Source: a virus
Lineage: Duplodnaviria; Caudoviricetes
DNA length: 64,000 nt
Virus record (IMG/VR): IMGVR_UViG_3300019742_000001
Direction: 5' to 3' (one strand)
Position 1 is the first letter of the stretch. Each line of letters starts with the position of its first letter. Under the pieces are notes generated by a model. That model was given only the letters and a program-made list of their open reading frames with translations, searched no databases and was not told the origin of the DNA. This document shows, in pieces, positions 36,613 to 45,248 of this stretch. A program made the translations under genes and the position numbers.

Positions 36613-36688
36613 TGGAGCCGACAACAGGAATCGAACCTGTAACACCCTCATTACAAGTGAGGTACTCTGCCAATTGAGCTATGTCGGC
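36613..36688 (-). tRNA. tRNA-Thr(TGT)
   Basis: Canonical cloverleaf, CCA end. Confidence 0.95.
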
Positions 36689-36691
36689 AAA

Positions 36692-36780
36692 TGGAGGAAG
36701 GTAAGGGATTCGAACCCTTAACGGGTATTACACCGCTACTTGTTTTCAAGACAAGCTCCTCGTCCAACCGGACACCTTCC
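36692..36780 (-). tRNA. tRNA-Ser(TGA)
   Basis: CT TGA AA, long variable arm. Confidence 0.92.
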
Positions 36781-36842
36781 ATTTTCTCTTTAATACTATA
36801 CAACAAAACCTTAATTTTACTTTATACTATGAAAGAAAGTAA

Positions 36843-37660
36843 GGGTGGGTCTGAGATTACGACCCACCTTTGTTAGAACTTTCGTTAGATTATCCGTAGG
36901 GGGCAACCCTTTGGTTCCTAACTTATCCACACATCATTCCAATGTGTATTCCAACGTGACTACCTTTTTTAAAGAGTGGTTTTTCTCTTGTCCTGTAAGT
37001 CTATTCAATACTTTGTCTACCCTAGTGAGTAATTAATTCCCTAAGTGCGACTCCCTATCAACACTCTCCAACTTGCGGTCTTTGAGTGCCCCAATTCACA
37101 ATACATGTTGGGGATTAAGCCACTTTCAACTTACAGCGGGGCCAACTTTGCGTTTACAATATTGGAATTGAACCAATAAATGTCAGATTAGAATTCTGAT
37201 TGACAACCTTTGTCAGATTGAACTATCCATGATGTGTGACCCCTGTGGATTCATAACCTTGCGATTACAAAATACCACACACCATATATCTTTCCCTTTT
37301 GTATCGGTACTCAATGGTTTTTCAAGATTTTGTCTGCCTCCTCACAAAGACACCCAATACCTATCAAACTACGAACCGCCCTTGACACTACTCTCAGACT
37401 ATGTTCATTATCCCTTATCTTTCATAAATGGAATGTTTGGTATGTAGTATTTCGGTACCACCCGAAACTCGTTTAGACCAGTGTTACCCACCTAAACTTT
37501 TTCCTACACATCCGTCATTACTTATGTCCACCTACTACAGTGAACACCCTTTACGGGAAGATGAGACTTGTTTGGTTATCCATTCGAAAATGGCGGGGAA
37601 GTGATAGAACTTACCCCTTTCGTTACGTTTCCGTAATTTATTTGTTGACACCAAACTGCC
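36843..37660 (-). ncRNA. GOLLD-like large noncoding RNA (boundaries approximate)
   Basis: ~800 nt with no credible ORF, dense hairpins, own promoter; 3' part GTGGATAAG..GGAA..ATAATC..AAAG..GTAATCTCAG resembles GOLLD as I recall it. Confidence 0.6.
37152..37223 (-). pseudogene. degenerate tRNA-like element nested in the large ncRNA (anticodon register TCT)
   Basis: D stem TGACAA/TTGTCA, anticodon stem TCAGA/TCTGA, T arm ATTGG-TTCAATT-CCAAT; weak acceptor stem, no CCA. Confidence 0.55.
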
Positions 37661-37664
37661 AATT

Positions 37665-37731
37665 TTATATTTTCAAAGATCGTTCTGTTTCAATGTTTGT
37701 CTACTATAACAACTTGTTCTGTCTTTGTAAA
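37665..37731 (-). promoter_or_regulatory. sigma70 promoter plus boxA-like site
   Basis: TTTACA-N17-TATAGT (37703-37731), then GATCTTTGAAAA (37665-37681). Confidence 0.6.
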
Positions 37732-37752
37732 CCACCTTTTTAATTTTAATTT

Positions 37753-37828
37753 TGGTGCGGGTAGTAGGGTTTGAACCTACGACGTACGATTTAAAAGACC
37801 GTTACTCTACCAACTGAGTTATACCCGC
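37753..37828 (-). tRNA. tRNA-Lys(TTT)
   Basis: Canonical cloverleaf, CCA end. Confidence 0.93.
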
Positions 37829-37839
37829 TCAGTTTTTAA

Positions 37840-37916
37840 TGGTAGGGATGACAGGAATCGAACCTGCATTGTACGAGTTAAAAGCCCGTTGTAAAACCAA
37901 TTTTTACTACATCCCC
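37840..37916 (-). tRNA. tRNA-Lys(TTT), second divergent copy
   Basis: CT TTT AA, CCA end. Confidence 0.88.
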
Positions 37917-38016
37917 ACAGACACATTTGTTTTACGTGTCCGTGGGAGTGTGTTAATCTCTTATCCCAAGAACACGATGAGTTTATCTTGTTTTCGTTTC
38001 ATCGTTAATCTCCTGT

Positions 38017-38304
38017 TTATTTTTTGTCAATAACTAAATTCATTTCTGTAACATATTTTCTTAAAATAACATAAGTTCCAAACTTATGTGTAATATTATA
38101 CTTTTCACTATCCCTTGTCAAGAACCAACTATAAATTTTATAAAGTTCTCTGTAATCGGTGTTTGTCAACTGTCTAACCGACAAATTACTTTCACGGTTG
38201 AATCTAATCGTCAAAACCCAAATATCTGGCAGTTTAGGTCTTGGTGTCTTTGGAAGTGTACCATTAATCGTAAAAAACTTGTATACCCATTCCTTCATAC
38301 TCAC
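38017..38304 (-). CDS. hypothetical protein
   Basis: 95 aa ORF. Confidence 0.5.
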   Translation of the reverse strand: MSMKEWVYKFFTINGTLPKTPRPKLPDIWVLTIRFNRESNLSVRQLTNTDYRELYKIYSWFLTRDSEKYNITHKFGTYVILRKYVTEMNLVIDKK

Positions 38305-38316
38305 ACCTTTCGTTTA

Positions 38317-38541
38317 TTAACACTGGAAATAAATGTCATCAACGATTTCAATATCCGTTAACGATTCCAACTCTTCAATTGCTGATGTCTGTGTAAGACT
38401 CTTTAAGTGTATTTGTGGATAACACCATCCAGTTTTTACATTCTGGAAAGATTTGGTCACATCCTTTAACATAAAATAGTAACCTTCATTGTCAATACTC
38501 TTTAATAATATACCTTTTCCAAGTAGTGTTTCATTATCCAT
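38317..38541 (-). CDS. hypothetical protein
   Basis: 74 aa ORF. Confidence 0.5.
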   Translation of the reverse strand: MDNETLLGKGILLKSIDNEGYYFMLKDVTKSFQNVKTGWCYPQIHLKSLTQTSAIEELESLTDIEIVDDIYFQC

Positions 38542-38683
38542 ACAAATTCCTTTATTGGATGCCGATCTCTCCCCAACTTCAAAATCCTAAGTGGTATCGA
38601 CTACGCTCCCACTAACTTAGACCTTCTACGTGGAAGAATCCCTCTTTTCGTTCTCCACACCTCAGCGTGAAGTTTTACGACTC

Positions 38684-38839
38684 TTACCTACCTTGACCAC
38701 GATATCGTTTGACACCACGTTTCTTATTCCGTTTTTTCTTTTCTGGTCGTGAACATTTACCACCGCCAATCGTGGTCACCATCTTTCTACCATTAATCGA
38801 TTTGTCGTTTGCTGTTGTTCCTCTGATTTTCTTAGCCAT
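38684..38839 (-). CDS. small basic phage protein ending KRYRGQGR (51 aa, not in ORF track)
   Basis: Translated by hand: MAKKIRGTT...KRNKKRGVKRYRGQGR*. Confidence 0.65.
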   Translation of the reverse strand: MAKKIRGTTANDKSINGRKMVTTIGGGKCSRPEKKKRNKKRGVKRYRGQGR

Positions 38840-38916
38840 TTCGTTTCCTTCTGTTAGTGGTTAATTTCAATAATAATAACACTCTGTTTCAATAATGTAA
38901 ACTATCTTTTTAAAAA

Positions 38917-38994
38917 TGGTAGGAGTAGAGGGATTCGAACCCATCACTTTATGCCGTTTAAAGACACTGACTCTGCCAATTGGTCTATACTCCC
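38917..38994 (-). tRNA. tRNA-Leu(TAA), short variable arm
   Basis: GTGTC TTTAAAC GGCAT arm, CCA end. Confidence 0.85.
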
Positions 38995-39003
38995 ATATAA
39001 ACT

Positions 39004-39209
39004 TAGTTGTTGATAGTGGTCGTTACCCCACTAATTCTTCCGATTTCCACGGTTACTCGCTGTGTATTGGAACAGGTTACACCTGCACTTCCCCGTTTAT
39101 AGGGTGTCTCCTAATTACCTATTACGAACCAATGATTTCAGGTAATACAGTCTCTTTAAAGTCCATGTTCGATTACAGACTACATGACTTACATGTTTAT
39201 CAACAACTA
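39004..39209 (-). ncRNA. unassigned structured RNA candidate (206 nt)
   Basis: Perfect 12-bp terminal inverted repeat TAGTTGTTGATA/TATCAACAACTA enclosing several hairpins. Confidence 0.45.
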
Positions 39210-39395
39210 TTTCTTTTCTTCTACTGTATCACTTAAATCATGGATTGTCCCACAATTATCACAATAAATATTTACTGATGGATCAAAGACAACTTCTTCA
39301 TCTGACATATCATGACCTTCTGGATCGATTGAGTATGTAAATGAATCATTACACCCACAGTTTCCACATATAACATGTAATCTCGCCCTTACCAT
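39207..39395 (-). CDS. small zinc-ribbon protein
   Basis: CGNCGC ... CDNCG. Confidence 0.6.
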   Translation of the reverse strand: MVRARLHVICGNCGCNDSFTYSIDPEGHDMSDEEVVFDPSVNIYCDNCGTIHDLSDTVEEKK

Positions 39396-39413
39396 ATCAA
39401 TCTCCGTCTAAAT

Positions 39414-39491
39414 TGGTGTTCCTAGTGGGATTCGAACCCGACAATAATCGCTTATAAGGCAACCGTTATAGACCATTTTAACTACAGGAAC
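39414..39491 (-). tRNA. tRNA-Ile(TAT)
   Basis: GTTGC CT TAT AA GCGAT arm, CCA end. Confidence 0.85.
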
Positions 39492-39498
39492 GTGTAAC

Positions 39499-39574
39499 TG
39501 GTGGATCTCCACGGACTTGAACCGTGATAATACGTCTTATGAGGACGCTGCTCTACCAATTGAGCTAAAGATCC
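39499..39574 (-). tRNA. tRNA-Ile2/Met(CAT)
   Basis: CT CAT AA; GGATCTT acceptor resembles lysidine-type Ile2. Confidence 0.85.
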
Positions 39575-39578
39575 AAAA

Positions 39579-39655
39579 TGGTGTCCCCGATAGGATTCGA
39601 ACCTATGACTAATAGCTTAGAAGGCTACTGCTCTATTCCGCTGAGCTACGGAGAC
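39579..39655 (-). tRNA. tRNA-Arg(TCT)
   Basis: Canonical cloverleaf, CCA end. Confidence 0.93.
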
Positions 39656-39663
39656 ATGTAACT

Positions 39664-39768
39664 TGTAATATCACTTTAACGAATGCTTCACCATATTTGC
39701 CCCACCGACAGTCAAGCCGAGGAGGGAATCGAACCCTCTTTCTTTCGTCTTGCAAAAGTGATATTACA
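39664..39768 (-). ncRNA. YrlA-like Y RNA (permuted tRNA mimic)
   Basis: 14-bp terminal stem, GACGAAAG (GNCGAANG) motif, then T arm, loop-closed acceptor-like stem and D-like loop. Confidence 0.7.
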
Positions 39769-39774
39769 TAAATT

Positions 39775-39850
39775 TGGTCAGGAGTATCGGGTACGATCCG
39801 ATATACACAGAGTCACAATCTATGCGATTAACCATTTATCTTAACTCCTG
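39775..39850 (-). tRNA. tRNA-His(GTG)
   Basis: TT GTG AC loop; A73 and genomic T at -1. Confidence 0.85.
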
Positions 39851-39860
39851 ATGATTTGTA

Positions 39861-39948
39861 ATACTCAGTGAGGGAATTGAACCCTCATCTCTCCGTCGAG
39901 GTAGTGATCTAATCCGTCTAGGGATATCCGTTTGATCTAACTGAGTAT
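39861..39948 (-). pseudogene. tRNA-like element with non-canonical anticodon region
   Basis: Acceptor ACTCAGT/ACTGAGT and intact T arm; no 7-nt anticodon loop, no CCA. Confidence 0.5.
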
Positions 39949-39955
39949 AATTTTT

Positions 39956-40029
39956 TGGTACTCCTAGATGGAATCGAACCACCGTTGTCTGGATGTAAGC
40001 CAGTCGTACTACCATTGTACTATAGGAGT
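39956..40029 (-). tRNA. tRNA-Val(TAC)
   Basis: CT TAC AT, CCA end. Confidence 0.9.
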
Positions 40030-40204
40030 ATGTTGTAACGTCGCCAATTTACCGTCTGGAAGTCTCTGAGTGGTTTATACTATACTATAGACATCTACCG
40101 AGGAATATAGTATTCGTGTGTTCCACATTACCTACCGCTAAATAGGTTTTCCTTCTCTACAGATTCATTATCCGATTGACACGAATAAATCAGCTATTAT
40201 CTTA

Positions 40205-40282
40205 TGGTAGCCCGTGAGGGTGTTGAACCCTCCCTTTACACCGTTTGAAGATGCTCCCTCTGCCAACGTGGGGTAACGAGCC
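40205..40282 (-). tRNA. tRNA-Leu(CAA), short variable arm
   Basis: TT CAA AC, CCA end. Confidence 0.85.
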
Positions 40283-40413
40283 ATAACTTTCTGTCTCAAT
40301 GTTTTTACATAGTAACCTATCATATAAACATTGTCAACTAATTACTTACTGAGGTTGGAGTCAAACCAACATTTGTCTAAAAGGTCTTGCTCAATCGCAT
40401 CCTACAGTAAAAA

Positions 40414-40552
40414 GGAGGGTAGGATGAGTATCGACCTCATCTTCCTTGGTCCCCACTCTCAACGGTACCGTCTCCAAGTGGTTTCTTTTGTTTACACGGT
40501 TCACATCTAAGGTTTCTGTGGTACCACTTTCACCGTTGATGTCCGACTACCC
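40414..40552 (-). ncRNA. tRNA-like RNA with long branched insert in place of the anticodon arm
   Basis: GGGTAG/CTACCC acceptor, GATGAG-GTCGATA-CTCATC T-like arm, TCAACGGT/ACCGTTGA and AAGTGGT/ACCACTT stems. Confidence 0.45.
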
Positions 40553-40560
40553 ATAATATT

Positions 40561-40636
40561 TGGTGGAAGAAAAGGGAATCGAACCCTAAAGACCCTCTGT
40601 ATGCAAAACAGAGTCGCAACCCCAATGCCTTCTCCC
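40561..40636 (-). tRNA. tRNA-Ala(TGC)
   Basis: TT TGC AT, G3:U70 pair, CCA end. Confidence 0.9.
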
Positions 40637-40673
40637 ATGATTTTTCATACATAATCGATTTAATTCCGATTAT

Positions 40674-41231
40674 CTATGTAATTTTTAACTTCTTTCGTAT
40701 CATAGTCTCAGATACACCAATTATCTCAGCAATTCTTGAGTTAGTCAAAGTTTTTTTCATTTCAACTAAGTCAAACTTTGACCAATCAACTTTACCTCTA
40801 AGTGATCCAGCACATTTCTTTGAACATGTTGTATATGTTTTTGGTTTTTCTTTACCACAAACAGGACAATACGTTACTTCTGTTTGTATGTAAATCACAA
40901 AATCTTCATCAAAAGTATTATGTGTCTCTGGTAATTCTGTTATACCACTATGAACTTCTTTGTGACAATTTGAACATAAAAGAATACATTTCCTTAGTTC
41001 TTTAACTATATTGTCCCACGATTTTGGATTAGCCATTACATTACCAAATGACAATTCCTTTTCTTCTGGATCAATGTGATGTAATTCTAATGCGTTGTTA
41101 CACTTATCATAACTACATATTTGACAACAACCACCCATTGATTCAACTATTCGTGATTTTGTAGAACTTCTCCACTTTTTTACTGCGTCTGATTGTTTAC
41201 TCACAACAAACCTCCAATTTGATATTAACAA
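40674..41231 (-). CDS. free-standing HNH homing endonuclease
   Basis: CQIC...LELHHIDP.EK...ELRKCILLCSNCHKEVH; TATAAATA at 41245-41252. Confidence 0.85.
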   Translation of the reverse strand: MLISNWRFVVSKQSDAVKKWRSSTKSRIVESMGGCCQICSYDKCNNALELHHIDPEEKELSFGNVMANPKSWDNIVKELRKCILLCSNCHKEVHSGITELPETHNTFDEDFVIYIQTEVTYCPVCGKEKPKTYTTCSKKCAGSLRGKVDWSKFDLVEMKKTLTNSRIAEIIGVSETMIRKKLKIT

Positions 41232-41268
41232 TACCTGTTAATAGTATTTATAAAAGTTTGTATTAATT

Positions 41269-41343
41269 TGGCTCCGAAGGTAGGGATCGAACCTACGACC
41301 TTGAAGTTAACAGCTTCCTGCTCTACCGCTGAGCTACTTCGGA
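41269..41343 (-). tRNA. tRNA-Asn(GTT)
   Basis: Canonical cloverleaf. Confidence 0.95.
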
Positions 41344-41351
41344 ATAAATAA

Positions 41352-41425
41352 TGGTGCCTCTTGGTGGAATCGAACCACCATCAAACGATTATCAGCCGTC
41401 TGCGCTACCGTTGTGCTAAAGAGGC
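41352..41425 (-). tRNA. tRNA-Ile(GAT)
   Basis: CT GAT AA. Confidence 0.92.
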
Positions 41426-41504
41426 ATATAACTAAAAAATGGTTGGTCCGACGAAGACCATAAAGAACCAGAGGAGTCACCTCAACCTGTTCAACCATTA
41501 AACT

Positions 41505-41583
41505 TGGAGCGGATATGGTGAATCGAACACCTTGCGATGGGTTGGAAACCCACTGTCACACCATGTAACTGAGCGATACCCGC
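41505..41583 (-). tRNA. tRNA-Gly(TCC)
   Basis: GTGGG TT TCC AA CCCAT arm, U73, CCA end. Confidence 0.85.
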
Positions 41584-41596
41584 ATTTCTTACTAAA

Positions 41597-41674
41597 TGGT
41601 AGCCCGTGAGGGTGTTGAACCCTCCCTTTACAGTTTCTAAAACTGCTCCCTCTGCCAACGTGGGGTAACGAGCC
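41597..41674 (-). tRNA. tRNA-Leu(TAG), short variable arm
   Basis: TT TAG AA; identical to Leu(CAA) outside the anticodon arm. Confidence 0.85.
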
Positions 41675-41867
41675 ATAAAATTAAACTTGATCTGACTACC
41701 CCAGATTGTAACCCCAGAACTTGTGATCCTTGGTTATCAAGTTTTATGATTGTACAAGGAATGACTAATTTCCTCTGGACGTTTCCAATATATTCGGTTC
41801 GAACCAAGTATATCGTATAGACGTGTCTTAAATCGCCTTAGATAGTCATACAATCATTTCGTAAATT

Positions 41868-41943
41868 TGGTGGAACCACAAGGTAACGATCCTTGACCTT
41901 CTGGACTTCAATCAGACGTGCAGACCATCTACACCATAGTTCC
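41868..41943 (-). tRNA. tRNA-Phe(GAA)
   Basis: TT GAA GT, CCA end. Confidence 0.85.
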
Positions 41944-41949
41944 GTAATT

Positions 41950-41980
41950 TGGCAGGGATAGTAGGGATCGAACCCACATC
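41950..41980 (-). pseudogene. 3' remnant of a tRNA-Trp-like gene
   Basis: T arm plus TATCCCTGCCA, the same 3' end as tRNA-Trp at 42460. Confidence 0.7.
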
Positions 41981-41985
41981 CAAAC

Positions 41986-42396
41986 CTATTTATTTTTTTC
42001 CATGTAGTGTATTTCTGAGTGACAATTCTTACACAAAACAACACACTTGTCAATTTCAATTATTATCTTTTCCTTGTTCATACCATCCGCCACCATTTTA
42101 CTAACACCCTTTACCTTTTTAGTAGGATCTAAATGATGAAAGTCTAAACAATAGTATCTATCTTCCCCACAATTAGAACATTTCAGGGTTTTCTTGTAAT
42201 CAGCAAACCATAAAGATAACTTTTTTTGTGATCTCCTACTACTTTCAACATACTTCTCTTTATTATCTTCGTAGTGTTTCTTAGTTGATATTGCTTGACA
42301 TACCTTACAATAATACTGATACCCATCATTCTTCGACTTATTCTTGTTGAACTCAGACAAAGATTTTTCTTGTTTACACCTACTACACACCTTCAT
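41986..42396 (-). CDS. free-standing HNH homing endonuclease
   Basis: CSRC...F.KNK..DG....CK.C; CSNCGE...LDFHHLDP..K...KCVVLCKNCH; TATAAATA at 42415-42422. Confidence 0.88.
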   Translation of the reverse strand: MKVCSRCKQEKSLSEFNKNKSKNDGYQYYCKVCQAISTKKHYEDNKEKYVESSRRSQKKLSLWFADYKKTLKCSNCGEDRYYCLDFHHLDPTKKVKGVSKMVADGMNKEKIIIEIDKCVVLCKNCHSEIHYMEKNK

Positions 42397-42459
42397 AATA
42401 ATCTCCTATGAAAGTATTTATAAAAGTTTCCAAACTATCAACTGTTGTTTGGAGTTAAT

Positions 42460-42533
42460 TGGCAGGGATACAACGAATCGAACGCTGATTAGAGGTGTTG
42501 GAAGCCCCTGTATTACCATTATACGATATCCCT
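42460..42533 (-). tRNA. tRNA-Trp(CCA)
   Basis: Positional register gives TT CCA AC; G73, CCA end. Confidence 0.8.
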
Positions 42534-42655
42534 ATAAAAAATCTGTTATTGCATATTATATTAGCTCTTTCCTTTCACATTGCAGGTGAATTAAGTGATA
42601 AGTGTACTCCACACTAATAAAGGTTTATGCTATACATCTATAACAGAAATTACTG

Positions 42656-42698
42656 ATCTCTCTGGTGGGATTTAAACCCACATTAGTTTCAGAGAGAT
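42656..42698 (-). ncRNA. tRNA minihelix-like element (acceptor-like stem plus T arm)
   Basis: TCTCTCTG/CAGAGAGA stem with GTGGG-TTTAAAT-CCCAC. Confidence 0.4.
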
Positions 42699-42702
42699 AA
42701 TT

Positions 42703-42778
42703 TGGTAGTGCTGGGGGGAATTGAACCCACCGTGATCAGATTGAAAATCTGAGATCCTAACCATTAGATGACAGCACC
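42703..42778 (-). tRNA. tRNA-Glu(TTC)
   Basis: TT TTC AA. Confidence 0.92.
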
Positions 42779-42898
42779 ATATTCTTTGTAAATTAAATTT
42801 TAAACGGTTACTTTACCGAGAGGATATTCCAATGTAAAGTCTTCCCATATCAACTTTACGAGGAAGGGGGGAACTCAAGATGTTTCACCGTTCAAACT

Positions 42899-42974
42899 TG
42901 GCGCCTCATACGGTATTCGAAACCGCAACAACTTGATCGACAATCAAGCTCCATTCCCAGATGGACCATAAGGC
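42899..42974 (-). tRNA. tRNA-Asp(GTC)
   Basis: TT GTC GA, G73. Confidence 0.85.
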
Positions 42975-43309
42975 ATTTTCTTTAATTTAGTGGAACAAGG
43001 AGTGTATGCCCTGATTTACTATCCACGTCCTGTGTGGATATCCACTAAAAGGTTTGGTAACCGCACCGTATCCCTTAGACTTGTCGAGGTAGTCGCCGTG
43101 ATTGGTTACCCGTAAATTCTGGTTAATCGGGATTCCATTTCCATCAGCGACCAAGCCAATTTACTACGGTATCCTTTTCACCACGGTCACATAACAATCA
43201 ACTGGTTAGGAATATGCCTCTGTGACCTAAACTTGTCACGGTTTTCGCCTCTCAGGACGGGTCTACATCAAATTAATGATCACCGTGAACCCTCTTTCTT
43301 TCGTATTAA

Positions 43310-43383
43310 TGGTCGGAAAGGTTGGAATCGAACCAACGTTACCTTCGTCCAAGGAAGGGTGAGTACCATTCTCTTACTCTCCG
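43310..43383 (-). tRNA. tRNA-Pro(TGG)
   Basis: CT TGG AC, CGG acceptor start. Confidence 0.9.
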
Positions 43384-43440
43384 TAATTCTTAAAACATCT
43401 TATCAGGAGTGTTCTCAACTGTCAAGATGTTTATAAATTT

Positions 43441-43523
43441 TGGTGGGAGGCGGAAGATTCGAACTTCTCCCCGAAGGAATGGTTTTACAGACCACTTGCT
43501 AGAGCCACTAGCTTTCACCTCCC
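43441..43523 (-). tRNA. tRNA-Tyr(GTA)
   Basis: CT GTA AA, variable arm. Confidence 0.92.
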
Positions 43524-43548
43524 ATATTTTTTACTTTTTCAAAAAACA

Positions 43549-43626
43549 TTCAATTGTCAAAGATCAGTGTTTCCGTTGTTTCGTTTAACGTGAGATCATC
43601 TTACCAAATCTCTTTCCTATCGTCAA
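43549..43626 (-). promoter_or_regulatory. sigma70 promoter plus boxA-like site
   Basis: TTGACG-N17-TAAGAT (43598-43626), then GATCTTTGACAATTGAA (43549-43565). Confidence 0.6.
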
Positions 43627-43829
43627 CCACTTTCTTTTAGTTTCAATAATTCTTCTTCAACCAATTTGGGATTTACTAGACCACGTGTTTTCTGCATCAC
43701 ACCCTTAAAAACTGTGTTATAAGGAACTTCATTCATTCCAGTTGTGTCTTCATCAAATATTTCATTGATTGCTTTGTATATCTCAAACATATAGGTAATT
43801 CTACTTCCTGTCAACTGTTTTCTTATCAT
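43623..43829 (-). CDS. small protein resembling the GatB/YqeY C-terminal helical domain
   Basis: FKGVMQKTRGLVNPKLVEEEL. Confidence 0.45.
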   Translation of the reverse strand: MIRKQLTGSRITYMFEIYKAINEIFDEDTTGMNEVPYNTVFKGVMQKTRGLVNPKLVEEELLKLKESG

Positions 43830-43842
43830 ACAAATCCTTTAA

Positions 43843-43914
43843 TGGAGGGTATGGAGGGAATTGAACCCTCGTTCATCGTTTTGCAGACGATACACCGAAC
43901 CATCGAACATACCC
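43843..43914 (-). tRNA. tRNA-Cys(GCA)
   Basis: CT GCA AA, U73, CCA end. Confidence 0.9.
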
Positions 43915-43915
43915 A

Positions 43916-44152
43916 TTAAATTTGAAATAAACTATTGTCTAATATTTCTTGTGTTTCTGGTAATTCTTTTCCTACTGAACCAGTATATCGGTCTTTTAAT
44001 ACCTGACCCGTTGTTATATTCTTAATATAAACAGCATCATACATTTTTCTAACTGGAATCGTTCTACTTGGGTTTGTATCAATGGTCTGATGAATATACT
44101 CAATCTTACCATCACCATAAATATACTTGTATACAAAAAATGAATTTTTCAT
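43916..44152 (-). CDS. hypothetical protein
   Basis: 78 aa ORF. Confidence 0.5.
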   Translation of the reverse strand: MKNSFFVYKYIYGDGKIEYIHQTIDTNPSRTIPVRKMYDAVYIKNITTGQVLKDRYTGSVGKELPETQEILDNSLFQI

Positions 44153-44433
44153 ATCTCAAATAAACCATCATCTTCTTTGAAGTGGTCATCAGTATACCCT
44201 GTAACTATAAATCCTGTCTCTAACAATCTTTCTATTGTCGGAACATCTAATCTATCAATTTGTATTGGATTTCCAGTATCCATCATTTCACTAATATAAT
44301 CAAGTGACGATCTTAAACCAAAACCTGTACTATTACGAAATGCTTTGATCAAATGAATCTTACCATTACCATTACCAGTTCTGGCTCTGGCTTTAAGTTG
44401 TTTACCAATATGCACATAATATGATTTTTTCAT
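44149..44433 (-). CDS. ribosomal protein L7/L12 C-terminal-like domain protein
   Basis: KIHLIKAFRNSTGFGLRSSLDYI vs the L12 pattern KI.VIK.VR..TGLGLKEAK..V. Confidence 0.55.
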   Translation of the reverse strand: MKKSYYVHIGKQLKARARTGNGNGKIHLIKAFRNSTGFGLRSSLDYISEMMDTGNPIQIDRLDVPTIERLLETGFIVTGYTDDHFKEDDGLFEI

Positions 44434-44449
44434 AATGTTACCTTTAAAT

Positions 44450-44523
44450 TGGCGGGGGATGAAGGTATCGATCCTTCGACGCTAGATTCAAAATCTAGTA
44501 TGATTCCATTTCACCAATCCCCT
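44450..44523 (-). tRNA. tRNA-Gln(TTG)
   Basis: TT TTG AA, G73. Confidence 0.9.
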
Positions 44524-44526
44524 ATA

Positions 44527-44835
44527 TTATGGGAAAAACTTATCCCAATCTGTTTTGTTTAAATACATCGTTCTTGATTTCAAGATCATATCAAGTGAAG
44601 GATAGGTTGTCAATATTTCTTTTACATTATCTTCACCTACAACAGCACTGAATCCTGTTGGGTACAATTCATCAATTATTTGAGGGTTTCCATTAGGTTC
44701 TGTTACAACTTCCACAACAAGAATCCCTTTGTCCCACCATCCTTGACAAGTATCACAAGGTTCATAGTCAAAAAATTCTGGTTTGTCATCCACAATATCA
44801 TCTTTTGACTTTCTACACCAAAAACATATTTTCAT
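44527..44835 (-). CDS. hypothetical Cys-containing protein
   Basis: True start MKICFWC; the longer ORF in the track overlaps tRNA-Arg. Confidence 0.6.
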   Translation of the reverse strand: MKICFWCRKSKDDIVDDKPEFFDYEPCDTCQGWWDKGILVVEVVTEPNGNPQIIDELYPTGFSAVVGEDNVKEILTTYPSLDMILKSRTMYLNKTDWDKFFP

Positions 44836-44857
44836 ATTAAATCTCCGTATTATATAT

Positions 44858-44930
44858 TGGCACCCTATGGAGGAGTCGAACCTCCGTAAGCTGGTTTCGT
44901 AAACCGACCACCGTTTCCCACGGATAGGGT
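44858..44930 (-). tRNA. tRNA-Arg(ACG)
   Basis: TT ACG AA, CCA end; first tRNA of the array in transcription order. Confidence 0.85.
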
Positions 44931-44970
44931 ACATACAATACTTTATCATTTGTTTTTCATTTAGTCAATA

Positions 44971-44987
44971 TTCAATTTTCAAAGAAC
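44971..44987 (-). promoter_or_regulatory. boxA-like antitermination site
   Basis: GTTCTTTGAAAATTGAA immediately after the terminator U-tract. Confidence 0.6.
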
Positions 44988-45025
44988 AAAAAAGGGTCAC
45001 ATTCTTATATAGAGTGTGACCCTTT
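44988..45025 (-). terminator. intrinsic terminator (attenuator) upstream of the tRNA array
   Basis: AAAGGGTCACACTCT-ATATA-AGAATGTGACCCTTTTTT. Confidence 0.85.
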
Positions 45026-45056
45026 CGGATAGGTTATGTAAAACTTTCTTACAAGG

Positions 45057-45188
45057 TCACATTCTGTCTCTCACTCTGCCCACACTATAATCAAACCACT
45101 GATTACAAATCGGACGTAACGCTATCATTTCGAAATTCTCTGATTTCGAATGAGTCATCGTTAGATTTGTTGTGAGTTGTGTAGTCAT
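45057..45188 (-). CDS. putative attenuator leader peptide (43 aa, contains all 20 amino acids; not in ORF track)
   Basis: MTTQLTTNLTMTHSKSENFEMIALRPICNQWFDYSVGRVRDRM*; AAGGA RBS; TGA lies inside a copy of the terminator 3' arm. Confidence 0.7.
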   Translation of the reverse strand: MTTQLTTNLTMTHSKSENFEMIALRPICNQWFDYSVGRVRDRM

Positions 45189-45219
45189 TTTTGTGATTCC
45201 TTGTTTAATTTTTTCTTCT

Positions 45220-45248
45220 ACTATAAGTTATTTATGCTTTTTTGTCAA
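45220..45248 (-). promoter_or_regulatory. sigma70 promoter of the leader/tRNA operon
   Basis: TTGACA-N17-TATAGT. Confidence 0.75.

Follow-up and report, generated by a model that had tools for sequence, protein, structure and literature searches.

Directly before the transfer RNA (tRNA) gene array of the phage in IMG/VR record IMGVR_UViG_3300019742_000001 lies a unit with the layout of a leader-peptide attenuator. The unit is on the minus strand of the 64-kb stretch of this phage that was analysed (hereafter, the window); the phage itself is about 240 kb in length and comes from a microbial mat. We propose that the unit is a ribosome-mediated (leader-peptide) transcription attenuator, and we put the probability of this at roughly 0.65. 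The second proposal, made tentatively and at somewhat less than even odds, is that the leader has been selected as a pan-tRNA sensor, such that a shortage of any charged tRNA would lead to read-through into a complete tRNA set. The class of mechanism is known, namely that of the textbook leader-peptide attenuator. An earlier note on this DNA had described a promoter with a ribosome-binding site, a 43-codon open reading frame (ORF) that uses all 20 amino acids, an internal hairpin, an 11-nt repeat around the stop codon that is copied in the 3′ arm of a terminator, and then boxA and the first tRNA gene. All of these features were found on the minus strand where the note had placed them, with the same peptide, and the order at the downstream end is terminator, boxA-like motif, a second promoter-like element (P2) and tRNA-Arg(ACG). 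In the order of transcription, the features are as follows.

45220–45248, minus strand: promoter P1, sigma-70-like, TTGACA-N17-TATAGT (TTGACA at 45248–45243, TATAGT at 45225–45220).
45197–45202, minus strand: ribosome-binding site AAGGAA, 8 nt ahead of the ATG.
45057–45188, minus strand: leader ORF of 43 codons plus TGA, peptide MTTQLTTNLTMTHSKSENFEMIALRPICNQWFDYSVGRVRDRM, all 20 amino acids.
45126–45152, minus strand: hairpin A, in codons 13–21, a possible RNA polymerase pause site.
45087–45106, minus strand: hairpin B, palindrome UAAUCAG-UGGU-UUGAUUA, which encodes NQWFDY.
45053–45065, minus strand: antiterminator 5′ strand AGAAUGUGACCUU, which holds the stop codon UGA (45059–45057).
45011–45025, minus strand: terminator 5′ arm AAAGGGUCACACUCU, common to the antiterminator and the terminator.
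44987–45005, minus strand: terminator 3′ arm and U-tract AGAAUGUGACCC; the arm itself is 45005–44991, followed by six T.
44976–44988, minus strand: boxA-like motif TGTTCTTTGAAAA, immediately 3′ of the U-tract.
44940–44983, minus strand: tandem 7-nt repeats (ATTGAAn) running into the promoter-like P2, TTGACT-N17-TAAAGT (hexamers 44968–44940).
44858–44930, minus strand: tRNA-Arg(ACG), first gene of the tRNA array (36613–44930).

With 11 of 12 matches, P1 is the joint best sigma-70-like site between 36000 and 47000. The sequence AGAATGTGACC occurs exactly twice, at 45065–45055, where it spans the stop codon, and at 45005–44995, in the terminator 3′ arm. From the base composition of the window, the chance that a fixed 11-mer recurs within 200 nt is estimated at about 4e-5. 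The terminator of the window folds at -18.5 kcal/mol; owing to a single internal mismatch, it escaped a simple terminator scan. The leader as a whole folds well below shuffled controls (z = -4.3).

This layout suggests the following mechanism. The anatomy, its conservation and the predicted alternative folds are read from the sequences, and from them we infer translation of the leader, switching and the signal. Transcripts would begin at P1 or come from the upstream structural genes, and would carry the translated 43-codon leader. A ribosome that reaches the stop codon would cover the antiterminator strand; the terminator would then form, and transcription would end at about 44989. A ribosome stalled within about codons 1 to 37 would instead leave the strand free to pair with the terminator 5′ arm and, with the antiterminator formed, RNA polymerase would pass the boxA-like site into the tRNA genes. 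Every amino acid would be sampled upstream of the masking point, and therefore a shortage of any charged tRNA would be reported and would raise tRNA transcription. Decoding capacity would be under negative feedback, which would add to the basal expression that P2 provides. Possible sources of the shortage are codon-usage mismatch, host shut-off or tRNA-cleaving host defences. A link to host anticodon nucleases is plausible by analogy with the work on phage tRNAs in counter-defence, and is a conjecture.

Relatives of the unit were retrieved from Logan, ENA and NCBI assemblies, with the 535-residue virion protein and the product of the 102-residue gene that follows tRNA-Arg as queries. The unit is present in five variants belonging to three lineages, namely the window (identical to L002), L001, and a group made up of L009, L012 and L021. 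The covariation and helix statistics given below rest on four distinct sequences. The unit of the window and of L001 comes after structural genes, and that of L009 and L012 immediately after a DUF932 gene. Downstream, in every case, are P2, tRNA-Arg(ACG), a homologue of the 102-residue gene and the tRNA array. Since there are two upstream contexts and the downstream context is constant, the unit has moved along with the array rather than with the genes that precede it. P1 has a counterpart in L001, TTTACA-N17-TATGAT; in L009 and L012 only a weaker TTGTAA-N16-TATAAA is read from the sequence.

The intrinsic terminator is found in all variants, with predicted energies of -17.6 to -21.0 kcal/mol and a following run of 5–7 U. 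When the RNA is folded as it would be before the 3′ arm is made, each of the five variants has the antiterminator as its minimum-energy fold (-15.6 to -21.8 kcal/mol); the predicted stability of the antiterminator is about equal to that of the terminator. The stop codon is inside the antiterminator strand in each of the five. In the window, L001 and L021, it is the UGA within AAGUGACC. L009 and L012 have 1 nt inserted, and in the shifted frame their leaders end at a UAA 8 nt further on, which is again within the paired strand. The overlap of stop codon and antiterminator in homologs, on which the earlier note had staked its model, is thus kept even where an indel has displaced the stop codon.

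The upstream strand, GUGACCUU, is invariant, whereas the codons that precede it and the loop that follows it diverge. In L001, the upstream strand and the terminator 5′ arm are complementary over 13 bp without a mismatch, and it is the terminator 3′ arm that carries a 2x2 mismatch. Compared with the window, an A to U change in the 5′ arm of L001 is matched by a U to A change in the upstream strand and not by the 3′ arm. At the inner base of the terminator 5′ arm, the L009 group has C in place of U, with a G in the 3′ arm and also, with the register shifted (GGAA/UUCC), in the upstream strand. In either helix, pairing extends to about 88% of cells, a share that drops to 35–55% with the partners slid.

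The two hairpins of the leader behave differently. The position of hairpin A is kept in the relatives and its stem differs, being UCGGC/GCCGA in L001 and UCGG/CCGA in L009; alifold finds changes on both sides at three of its pairs. Hairpin B, a 20-nt palindrome (ATAATCAGTGGTTTGATTAT), is nearly invariant in its nucleotides, with eight pairs kept in 5/5 variants. It differs at one place only, where L012 has CAA for CAG and thereby an A-U pair for a G-U pair. In the window, the Shine-Dalgarno region is also predicted to pair with the antiterminator strand, and this pairing is conserved only in part.

The leader is kept as a frame, and its peptide evolves almost freely. The peptides of the relatives are as follows.

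L001: MTSQLTSKHTTICSSALRAEMLVLRPISNQWFDYINGESGDRK, 43 residues.
L009: MFQRLTSQLHTSCISVNEKAETLVLRPNNQWFDYSIGNRNIVTF, 44 residues.
L012: differs from L009 by two substitutions.
L021: MFQRLTSQFYTLCISANEKAETLVLRPNNQWFDYSIGNRNK, 41 residues.

Leader length thus stays within 41–44 codons. None of the five variants has a stop within the leader frame, against 2–6 stops in each of the other two frames, and the probability of such an open frame is 0.03–0.07 per lineage. Every lineage has a Shine-Dalgarno-like site, in differing sequence (AAAGGAAA in L001; GAGG in L009, L012 and L021), and insertions or deletions within the ORF body have lengths divisible by three. Between lineages, the ratio of nonsynonymous to synonymous substitution rates (dN/dS) is 0.5–1.0, substitutions are spread evenly across the three codon positions, and identity falls as low as 40–51%. 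A kept frame and end point with near-free sequence suits a leader peptide, as judged from these comparisons, and is unlike what is seen in a folded protein. PHROGs and Pfam hold nothing for the leader peptide, and its profile, run against 1.8 billion representatives, recovered its own two clusters and spurious matches in long proteins.

One block of the peptide, LRP..NQWFDY..G, is invariant, with a few synonymous changes (TTA/CTG/TTG, CGT/CGC, CCG/CCA, CAG/CAA). Since the core of the block is also invariant in nucleotides and forms hairpin B, its conservation may be at the level of RNA. An arrest peptide of the TnaC type, which has W-x3-D...P right before the stop codon at a fixed spacing, was considered and rejected. 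The leaders have WFD but do not end in Pro, and the spacing of Trp from the last residue is not constant (12, 12, 13 and 10 residues).

The composition of the window leader is unusual. The chance of finding all 20 amino acids in 43 codons, which the earlier note had left to be computed, is P = 0.0076 for random residues of the phage composition, or 0.0098 if the initiator Met is fixed, and a peptide of this length is expected to hold 16.7 +/- 1.3 distinct residues. Leader residues 12–37, a stretch of 26, already cover all 20, and no shorter all-20 stretch exists in the six frames of the window; for a fixed 26-residue stretch the probability is 7.5e-6. The next-shortest stretch, of 29 residues, is within a real gene (31492–31406), so the value for the leader is extreme but not absurd. 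The leader contains no runs of one regulatory codon; each amino acid is present, many of them once. By inspection, there is no relation between the order of residues in the leader and the order of tRNAs in the array.

All 20 amino acids are found in the leaders of four of the five variants, and rare residues have moved between lineages, as follows.

Cys: position 28 in the window, 13 in L001, 13 in L009.
His: position 13 in the window, 9 in L001, 10 in L009.
Lys: position 15 in the window, 8 and 43 in L001, 19 in L009.
Ala: position 23 in the window, 16 and 19 in L001, 20 in L009.

In the null model for this retention, identical columns were fixed and the others redrawn, and columns common to L001 and L009 were drawn once. 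Given the window peptide, the probability that both other lineages have all 20 is 0.0013 with proteome frequencies and 0.0055 with the frequencies that the base composition of the leader would give. Because the comparison of diverging leaders had been set beforehand in the earlier note, this is a real test, significant at about 1e-3 to 1e-2. The expected pattern, divergence in sequence with the complete set retained, is seen in the four variants; the exception is L021, which lacks His. In every lineage, the set has become complete by the time a conserved Gly37 (GGC) is reached, a codon 14–15 nt upstream of the core antiterminator strand. At this distance, given the size of the ribosome footprint, a ribosome stalled at any informative codon is predicted to leave the strand free.

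Codon usage in the leader also departs from that of the phage. The mean log relative synonymous codon usage is -0.09 in the window leader versus 0.20 +/- 0.05 for phage genes, a value lower than the 1% quantile for stretches of 42 codons taken from real genes. By synonymous recoding, rare codons are enriched at P = 0.0009, and L001 and L009 are alike in this. Conserved rare codons are GGC (1% of Gly), CUC (2% of Leu), UCG (5% of Ser) and ACG (6% of Thr), and such codons would sensitise the leader to tRNA supply. The codons that the earlier note had stressed, ATA, CTA, TTA and AGA, show no special conservation.

Several points weigh against these proposals, and the first group concerns the attenuator. 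The covariation is not significant, since only four distinct sequences are available; shuffles equal the observed score in 139/500 and 77/500 cases. Most helix pairs never vary, and there is one compensatory pair per helix, U-A to A-U in the antiterminator and U-A to C-G in the terminator. The predicted structures are conserved and consistent, and covariation is no proof of them. The attenuator architecture of the earlier note draws its support from the comparison across variants and not from significant covariation. The sequencing runs that match the window sequence are from microbial-mat DNA only, with no RNA runs among them. P2, the most conserved promoter-like element of the unit (TTGAC(A/T)-N17-TAA(A/G)(G/A)T in all lineages), is 3′ of the terminator, and so the terminator could gate only transcription that comes from upstream. 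The array may not depend on read-through.

The second group concerns the sensor. The all-20 property of the window is a post hoc pattern, and only the test in relatives was set in advance. L021 has lost its His through two adjacent C-to-T changes, and in L009 and L012 Met occurs only as the initiator if the start is the ATG preceded by the Shine-Dalgarno site. Conservation of the LRP-NQWFDY-G block could point to a dedicated role for the peptide itself or for hairpin B. The rare codons could be a by-product of constraints on RNA structure. Phage tRNAs could decode 36 of the 42 leader codons, versus 33.4 expected (P = 0.15), and 21 of the 23 phage tRNA species are represented in the leader (P = 0.30); leader codons thus fit the phage tRNAs no better than the amino-acid composition by itself would make them. 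For the all-20 sensor of the earlier note, the composition is supported by the comparison, and the absence of His in L021 and the limit that P2 sets on control count against it.

The first alternative is that the attenuator is real and its all-20 composition incidental. The unit would then sense translation in general or its coupling, a few rare codons (GGC, CUC, UCG, ACG and CGC), or arrest at the LRP-NQWFDY-G block. It has the same architecture and conservation to draw upon, and upstream ORFs that report general translation stress are known, for example, toiL (PMC12121999). Conserved rare codons, an invariant block, and leaders that do without His or internal Met speak for it; the retention of all 20 residues by both other lineages despite a near-neutral peptide (P = 0.001–0.006), with Cys, His, Lys and Ala relocated, speaks against it. 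In its arrest-peptide version, the proposal has the further difficulty that Trp is at no constant distance from the last residue (10, 12 or 13 residues), and the block, conserved in nucleotides and forming hairpin B, need not be an arrest peptide. We regard incidental composition as unlikely, though a serious candidate.

According to the second alternative, the ORF is an ordinary small gene with a constitutive insulating terminator, P2 drives the array, and the upstream copy of the arm has no switching role. The peptide, nearly unconstrained (dN/dS 0.5–1) and belonging to no known family or other cluster, is hard to reconcile with such a gene, even though promoter-ORF units are frequent among the tRNAs of the array. 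A strong terminator, a promoter-like element past it that is the best conserved of the unit, and covariation short of significance would all be expected. Yet GUGACCUU is invariant amid diverging flanks and tracks the 5′ arm where the terminator 3′ arm does not, the overlap of stop codon and strand outlasts a frameshifting indel, and the unit has been relocated together with the array to another genome context. In addition, the boxA-like site enters RNA only by read-through of the terminator. An ordinary gene followed by an insulator is, in our judgement, improbable.

Least probable is a trans-acting factor, protein or RNA, that binds hairpin B or the GUGACC/GGUCAC copies, or a role of the terminated 225-nt leader as a small RNA: a 20-nt palindrome practically invariant in nucleotides, a GTGACC hexamer present three times (in direct, inverted and direct orientation), the z of -4.3 of the leader fold and the precedent of attenuator-derived small RNAs such as rnTrpL (PMC6614838) would suit it, but it leaves the kept ORF, the Shine-Dalgarno site, the length of 41–44 codons, the in-frame indels and the stop overlap unexplained, Rfam holds no match, T-box included, and no candidate binding protein was found.

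We return to the proposed attenuator and to what it would control. P2 had been noted earlier as a caveat, as TTGACT-N17-TAAAGT at 44968–44940; it is indeed 3′ of the terminator and conserved, and very probably gives the array a basal expression independent of the attenuator. Control of the array by the attenuator is at most partial. There is no terminator between the upstream 157-residue gene and P1, so RNA polymerase coming from the structural module would run into the conditional stop as well. It follows from this arrangement of sites that the element would be a valve on transcription from upstream and from P1, adding to that from P2, and not the sole switch of the array. Two internal promoters of the array, at 43626 and 37731, have no leader ORF.

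The boxA-like motif, (T/C)G(A/T)TCTTTGA(A/C)AAT, is also found at 43554–43566 and 37670–37682 (both minus strand), 14–37 nt past the predicted starts of these internal promoters. Its recurrence there suggests a boxA-like action in RNA. At the head of the array, the site is transcribed only via read-through of the terminator. Like the rrn-type boxA/Nus leaders, the unit would have a boxA-like motif in the first part of the read-through RNA, ahead of a long series of structured RNAs. The phage motif agrees with E. coli rrn boxA at only 10–11 of 13 positions, the copy next to the U-tract at 10 of them, and its count in the whole window (11 versus 6.2 +/- 2.3 expected) is only marginally above chance.

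P2 shows two further features. Its -35 hexamer is overlapped by the tandem repeats ATTGAAa ATTGAAt ATTGACt (44963–44983, minus strand), and L021 (1079–1108) has one additional 7-nt repeat before P2; the repeats could be a factor-binding site or make the promoter slippage-prone. In L001 (13148–13200) and L009 (6780–6818), the -10 region of P2 falls within the loop formed by a long inverted repeat (TTCTCCTTC...GAAGGAGA), which is lacking in the window. The inverted repeat shows compensatory differences between the L001 and L009 lineages, and might serve as an operator or form an RNA hairpin immediately ahead of tRNA-Arg.

In searches with Rfam, the transcribed strand of 44975–45215 had no match at E <= 1, and membership in the T-box or another known leader family was rejected. 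Leader-peptide attenuators control biosynthetic operons through trpL, hisL, leuL, thrL and pheL, and the ilvGMEDA and thr leaders are multivalent. Like the trpL-type leaders, the phage unit has a short ORF close to the promoter and preceded by a Shine-Dalgarno site, an intrinsic terminator whose 5′ arm can pair instead with a partner further upstream, and hairpins within the leader at which RNA polymerase might pause. The end of the ORF is likewise placed so that a finishing ribosome would mask the partner and an upstream stall would free it. Unlike them, the phage unit has no runs of a single codon, its 20 amino acids occurring once or a few times each; it precedes tRNA genes rather than genes for biosynthetic enzymes; and a second promoter follows the terminator. 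An equivalent of the 1:2 anti-antiterminator is only a candidate in the phage, as the pairing of the Shine-Dalgarno region with the antiterminator strand.

A second group of known systems responds to translation stress. In E. coli, toiL-topAI acts via occlusion of a ribosome-binding site and Rho (PMC12121999), and the leaders of vmlR, msrD and hflXr are translation-stress attenuators (PMC9226507, PMC10314930 and PMC6310831). The phage unit resembles these in that a short ORF would serve as a general sensor, with stalls at varied positions refolding the RNA and switching on genes. In the known systems, the signal is ribosome-targeting antibiotics and the targets are resistance or toxin genes; in contrast, the phage unit has an intrinsic terminator, a tRNA array as its cargo and, as proposed, a tRNA shortage as its signal.

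The phage is sparsely covered by the public collections. The window sequence itself was found in four microbial-mat metagenome runs, in contigs of up to 239,651 bp. A BLAST search of the region against 50,697 phage records gave nothing near and, at a distance, only tRNA-Arg; the structural protein of the window has at most 30% identity to any phage record, the nearest being those of cyanophages. Scans of IMG/VR with the structural protein, the NQWFDY-coding block, a three-part antiterminator/terminator pattern, a profile of the 102-residue protein and the P2 repeat gave no true relatives, and the exact-word matches there were chance matches. A scan of JGI metagenomes gave one more copy of the L012 type and nothing else, and a scan of GTDB genomes gave 39 chance matches and no leader. 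In L007, L008 and L073, with structural proteins of 46–51% identity, no tRNA array or leader is found at the corresponding position.

The array contains 24 tRNAs called by ARAGORN and a tRNA-Trp(CCA) at 41508–41583 (minus strand). The latter was missed by ARAGORN, scores 28.9 bits in Rfam against a cut-off of 29, and has an unusual D region; its anticodon was read from the sequence. With tRNA-Trp added, the array covers all 20 amino acids. At the distal end is a full-length GOLLD RNA (36847–37285, minus strand; Rfam RF02032, 183.7 bits against a gathering threshold of 150), with a weak tRNA-like match inside it at 37154–37222. In L009 (6826–6900) and L012 (5918–6000), a tRNA-Arg(ACG)-like sequence with extra bases follows P2 and is not called by ARAGORN; the ORFs of 120–122 residues called over it are probably over-extended.

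Small ORFs with their own promoters are common between the tRNAs of the array. A protein of 102–107 residues is always encoded after tRNA-Arg (window 44527–44835, minus strand; homologues P0123–P0128); it has the motifs CxxC...CxxC, NKGILVIE, TEPNGNP and SRTMYLN, and no Pfam or PHROG match. A small protein resembling the C-terminal domain of L7/L12 is encoded inside the tRNA island of the window (44149–44433, minus strand), L001 (13686–14201) and L009 (7483–7992). The 171-residue protein of L001 scores 29.9 bits for this domain, above the Pfam cut-off of 25.9, and the 94-residue protein of the window only 13.9 bits. Going by this resemblance, it would be a phage module that binds translation factors, encoded beside the tRNAs. 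Also among the tRNA genes is an ORF of 185 residues like HNH endonucleases (40674–41231, minus strand), with weak Pfam matches under the cut-offs, and the arrays of the relatives hold NUMOD3 and GIY-YIG-like genes.

The reasons for which phages carry tRNA genes, and the control of these genes, have been under debate for decades. According to recent work, phage tRNAs can stand in for host tRNAs that defence nucleases have cut (PMC10264068, PMC11555353 and PMC11464382). In the literature, we found no description of leader-peptide or feedback control of phage tRNA genes, nor of a leader designed to hold every amino acid. If the sensor proposal is correct, the logic of attenuation would extend from one or a few amino acids to decoding capacity as a whole, and phage tRNA arrays would be regulated on demand. 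The unit would then be a compact and portable genetic sensor of tRNA supply and, for the phage, a virus-encoded supply-and-demand homeostat for decoding capacity.

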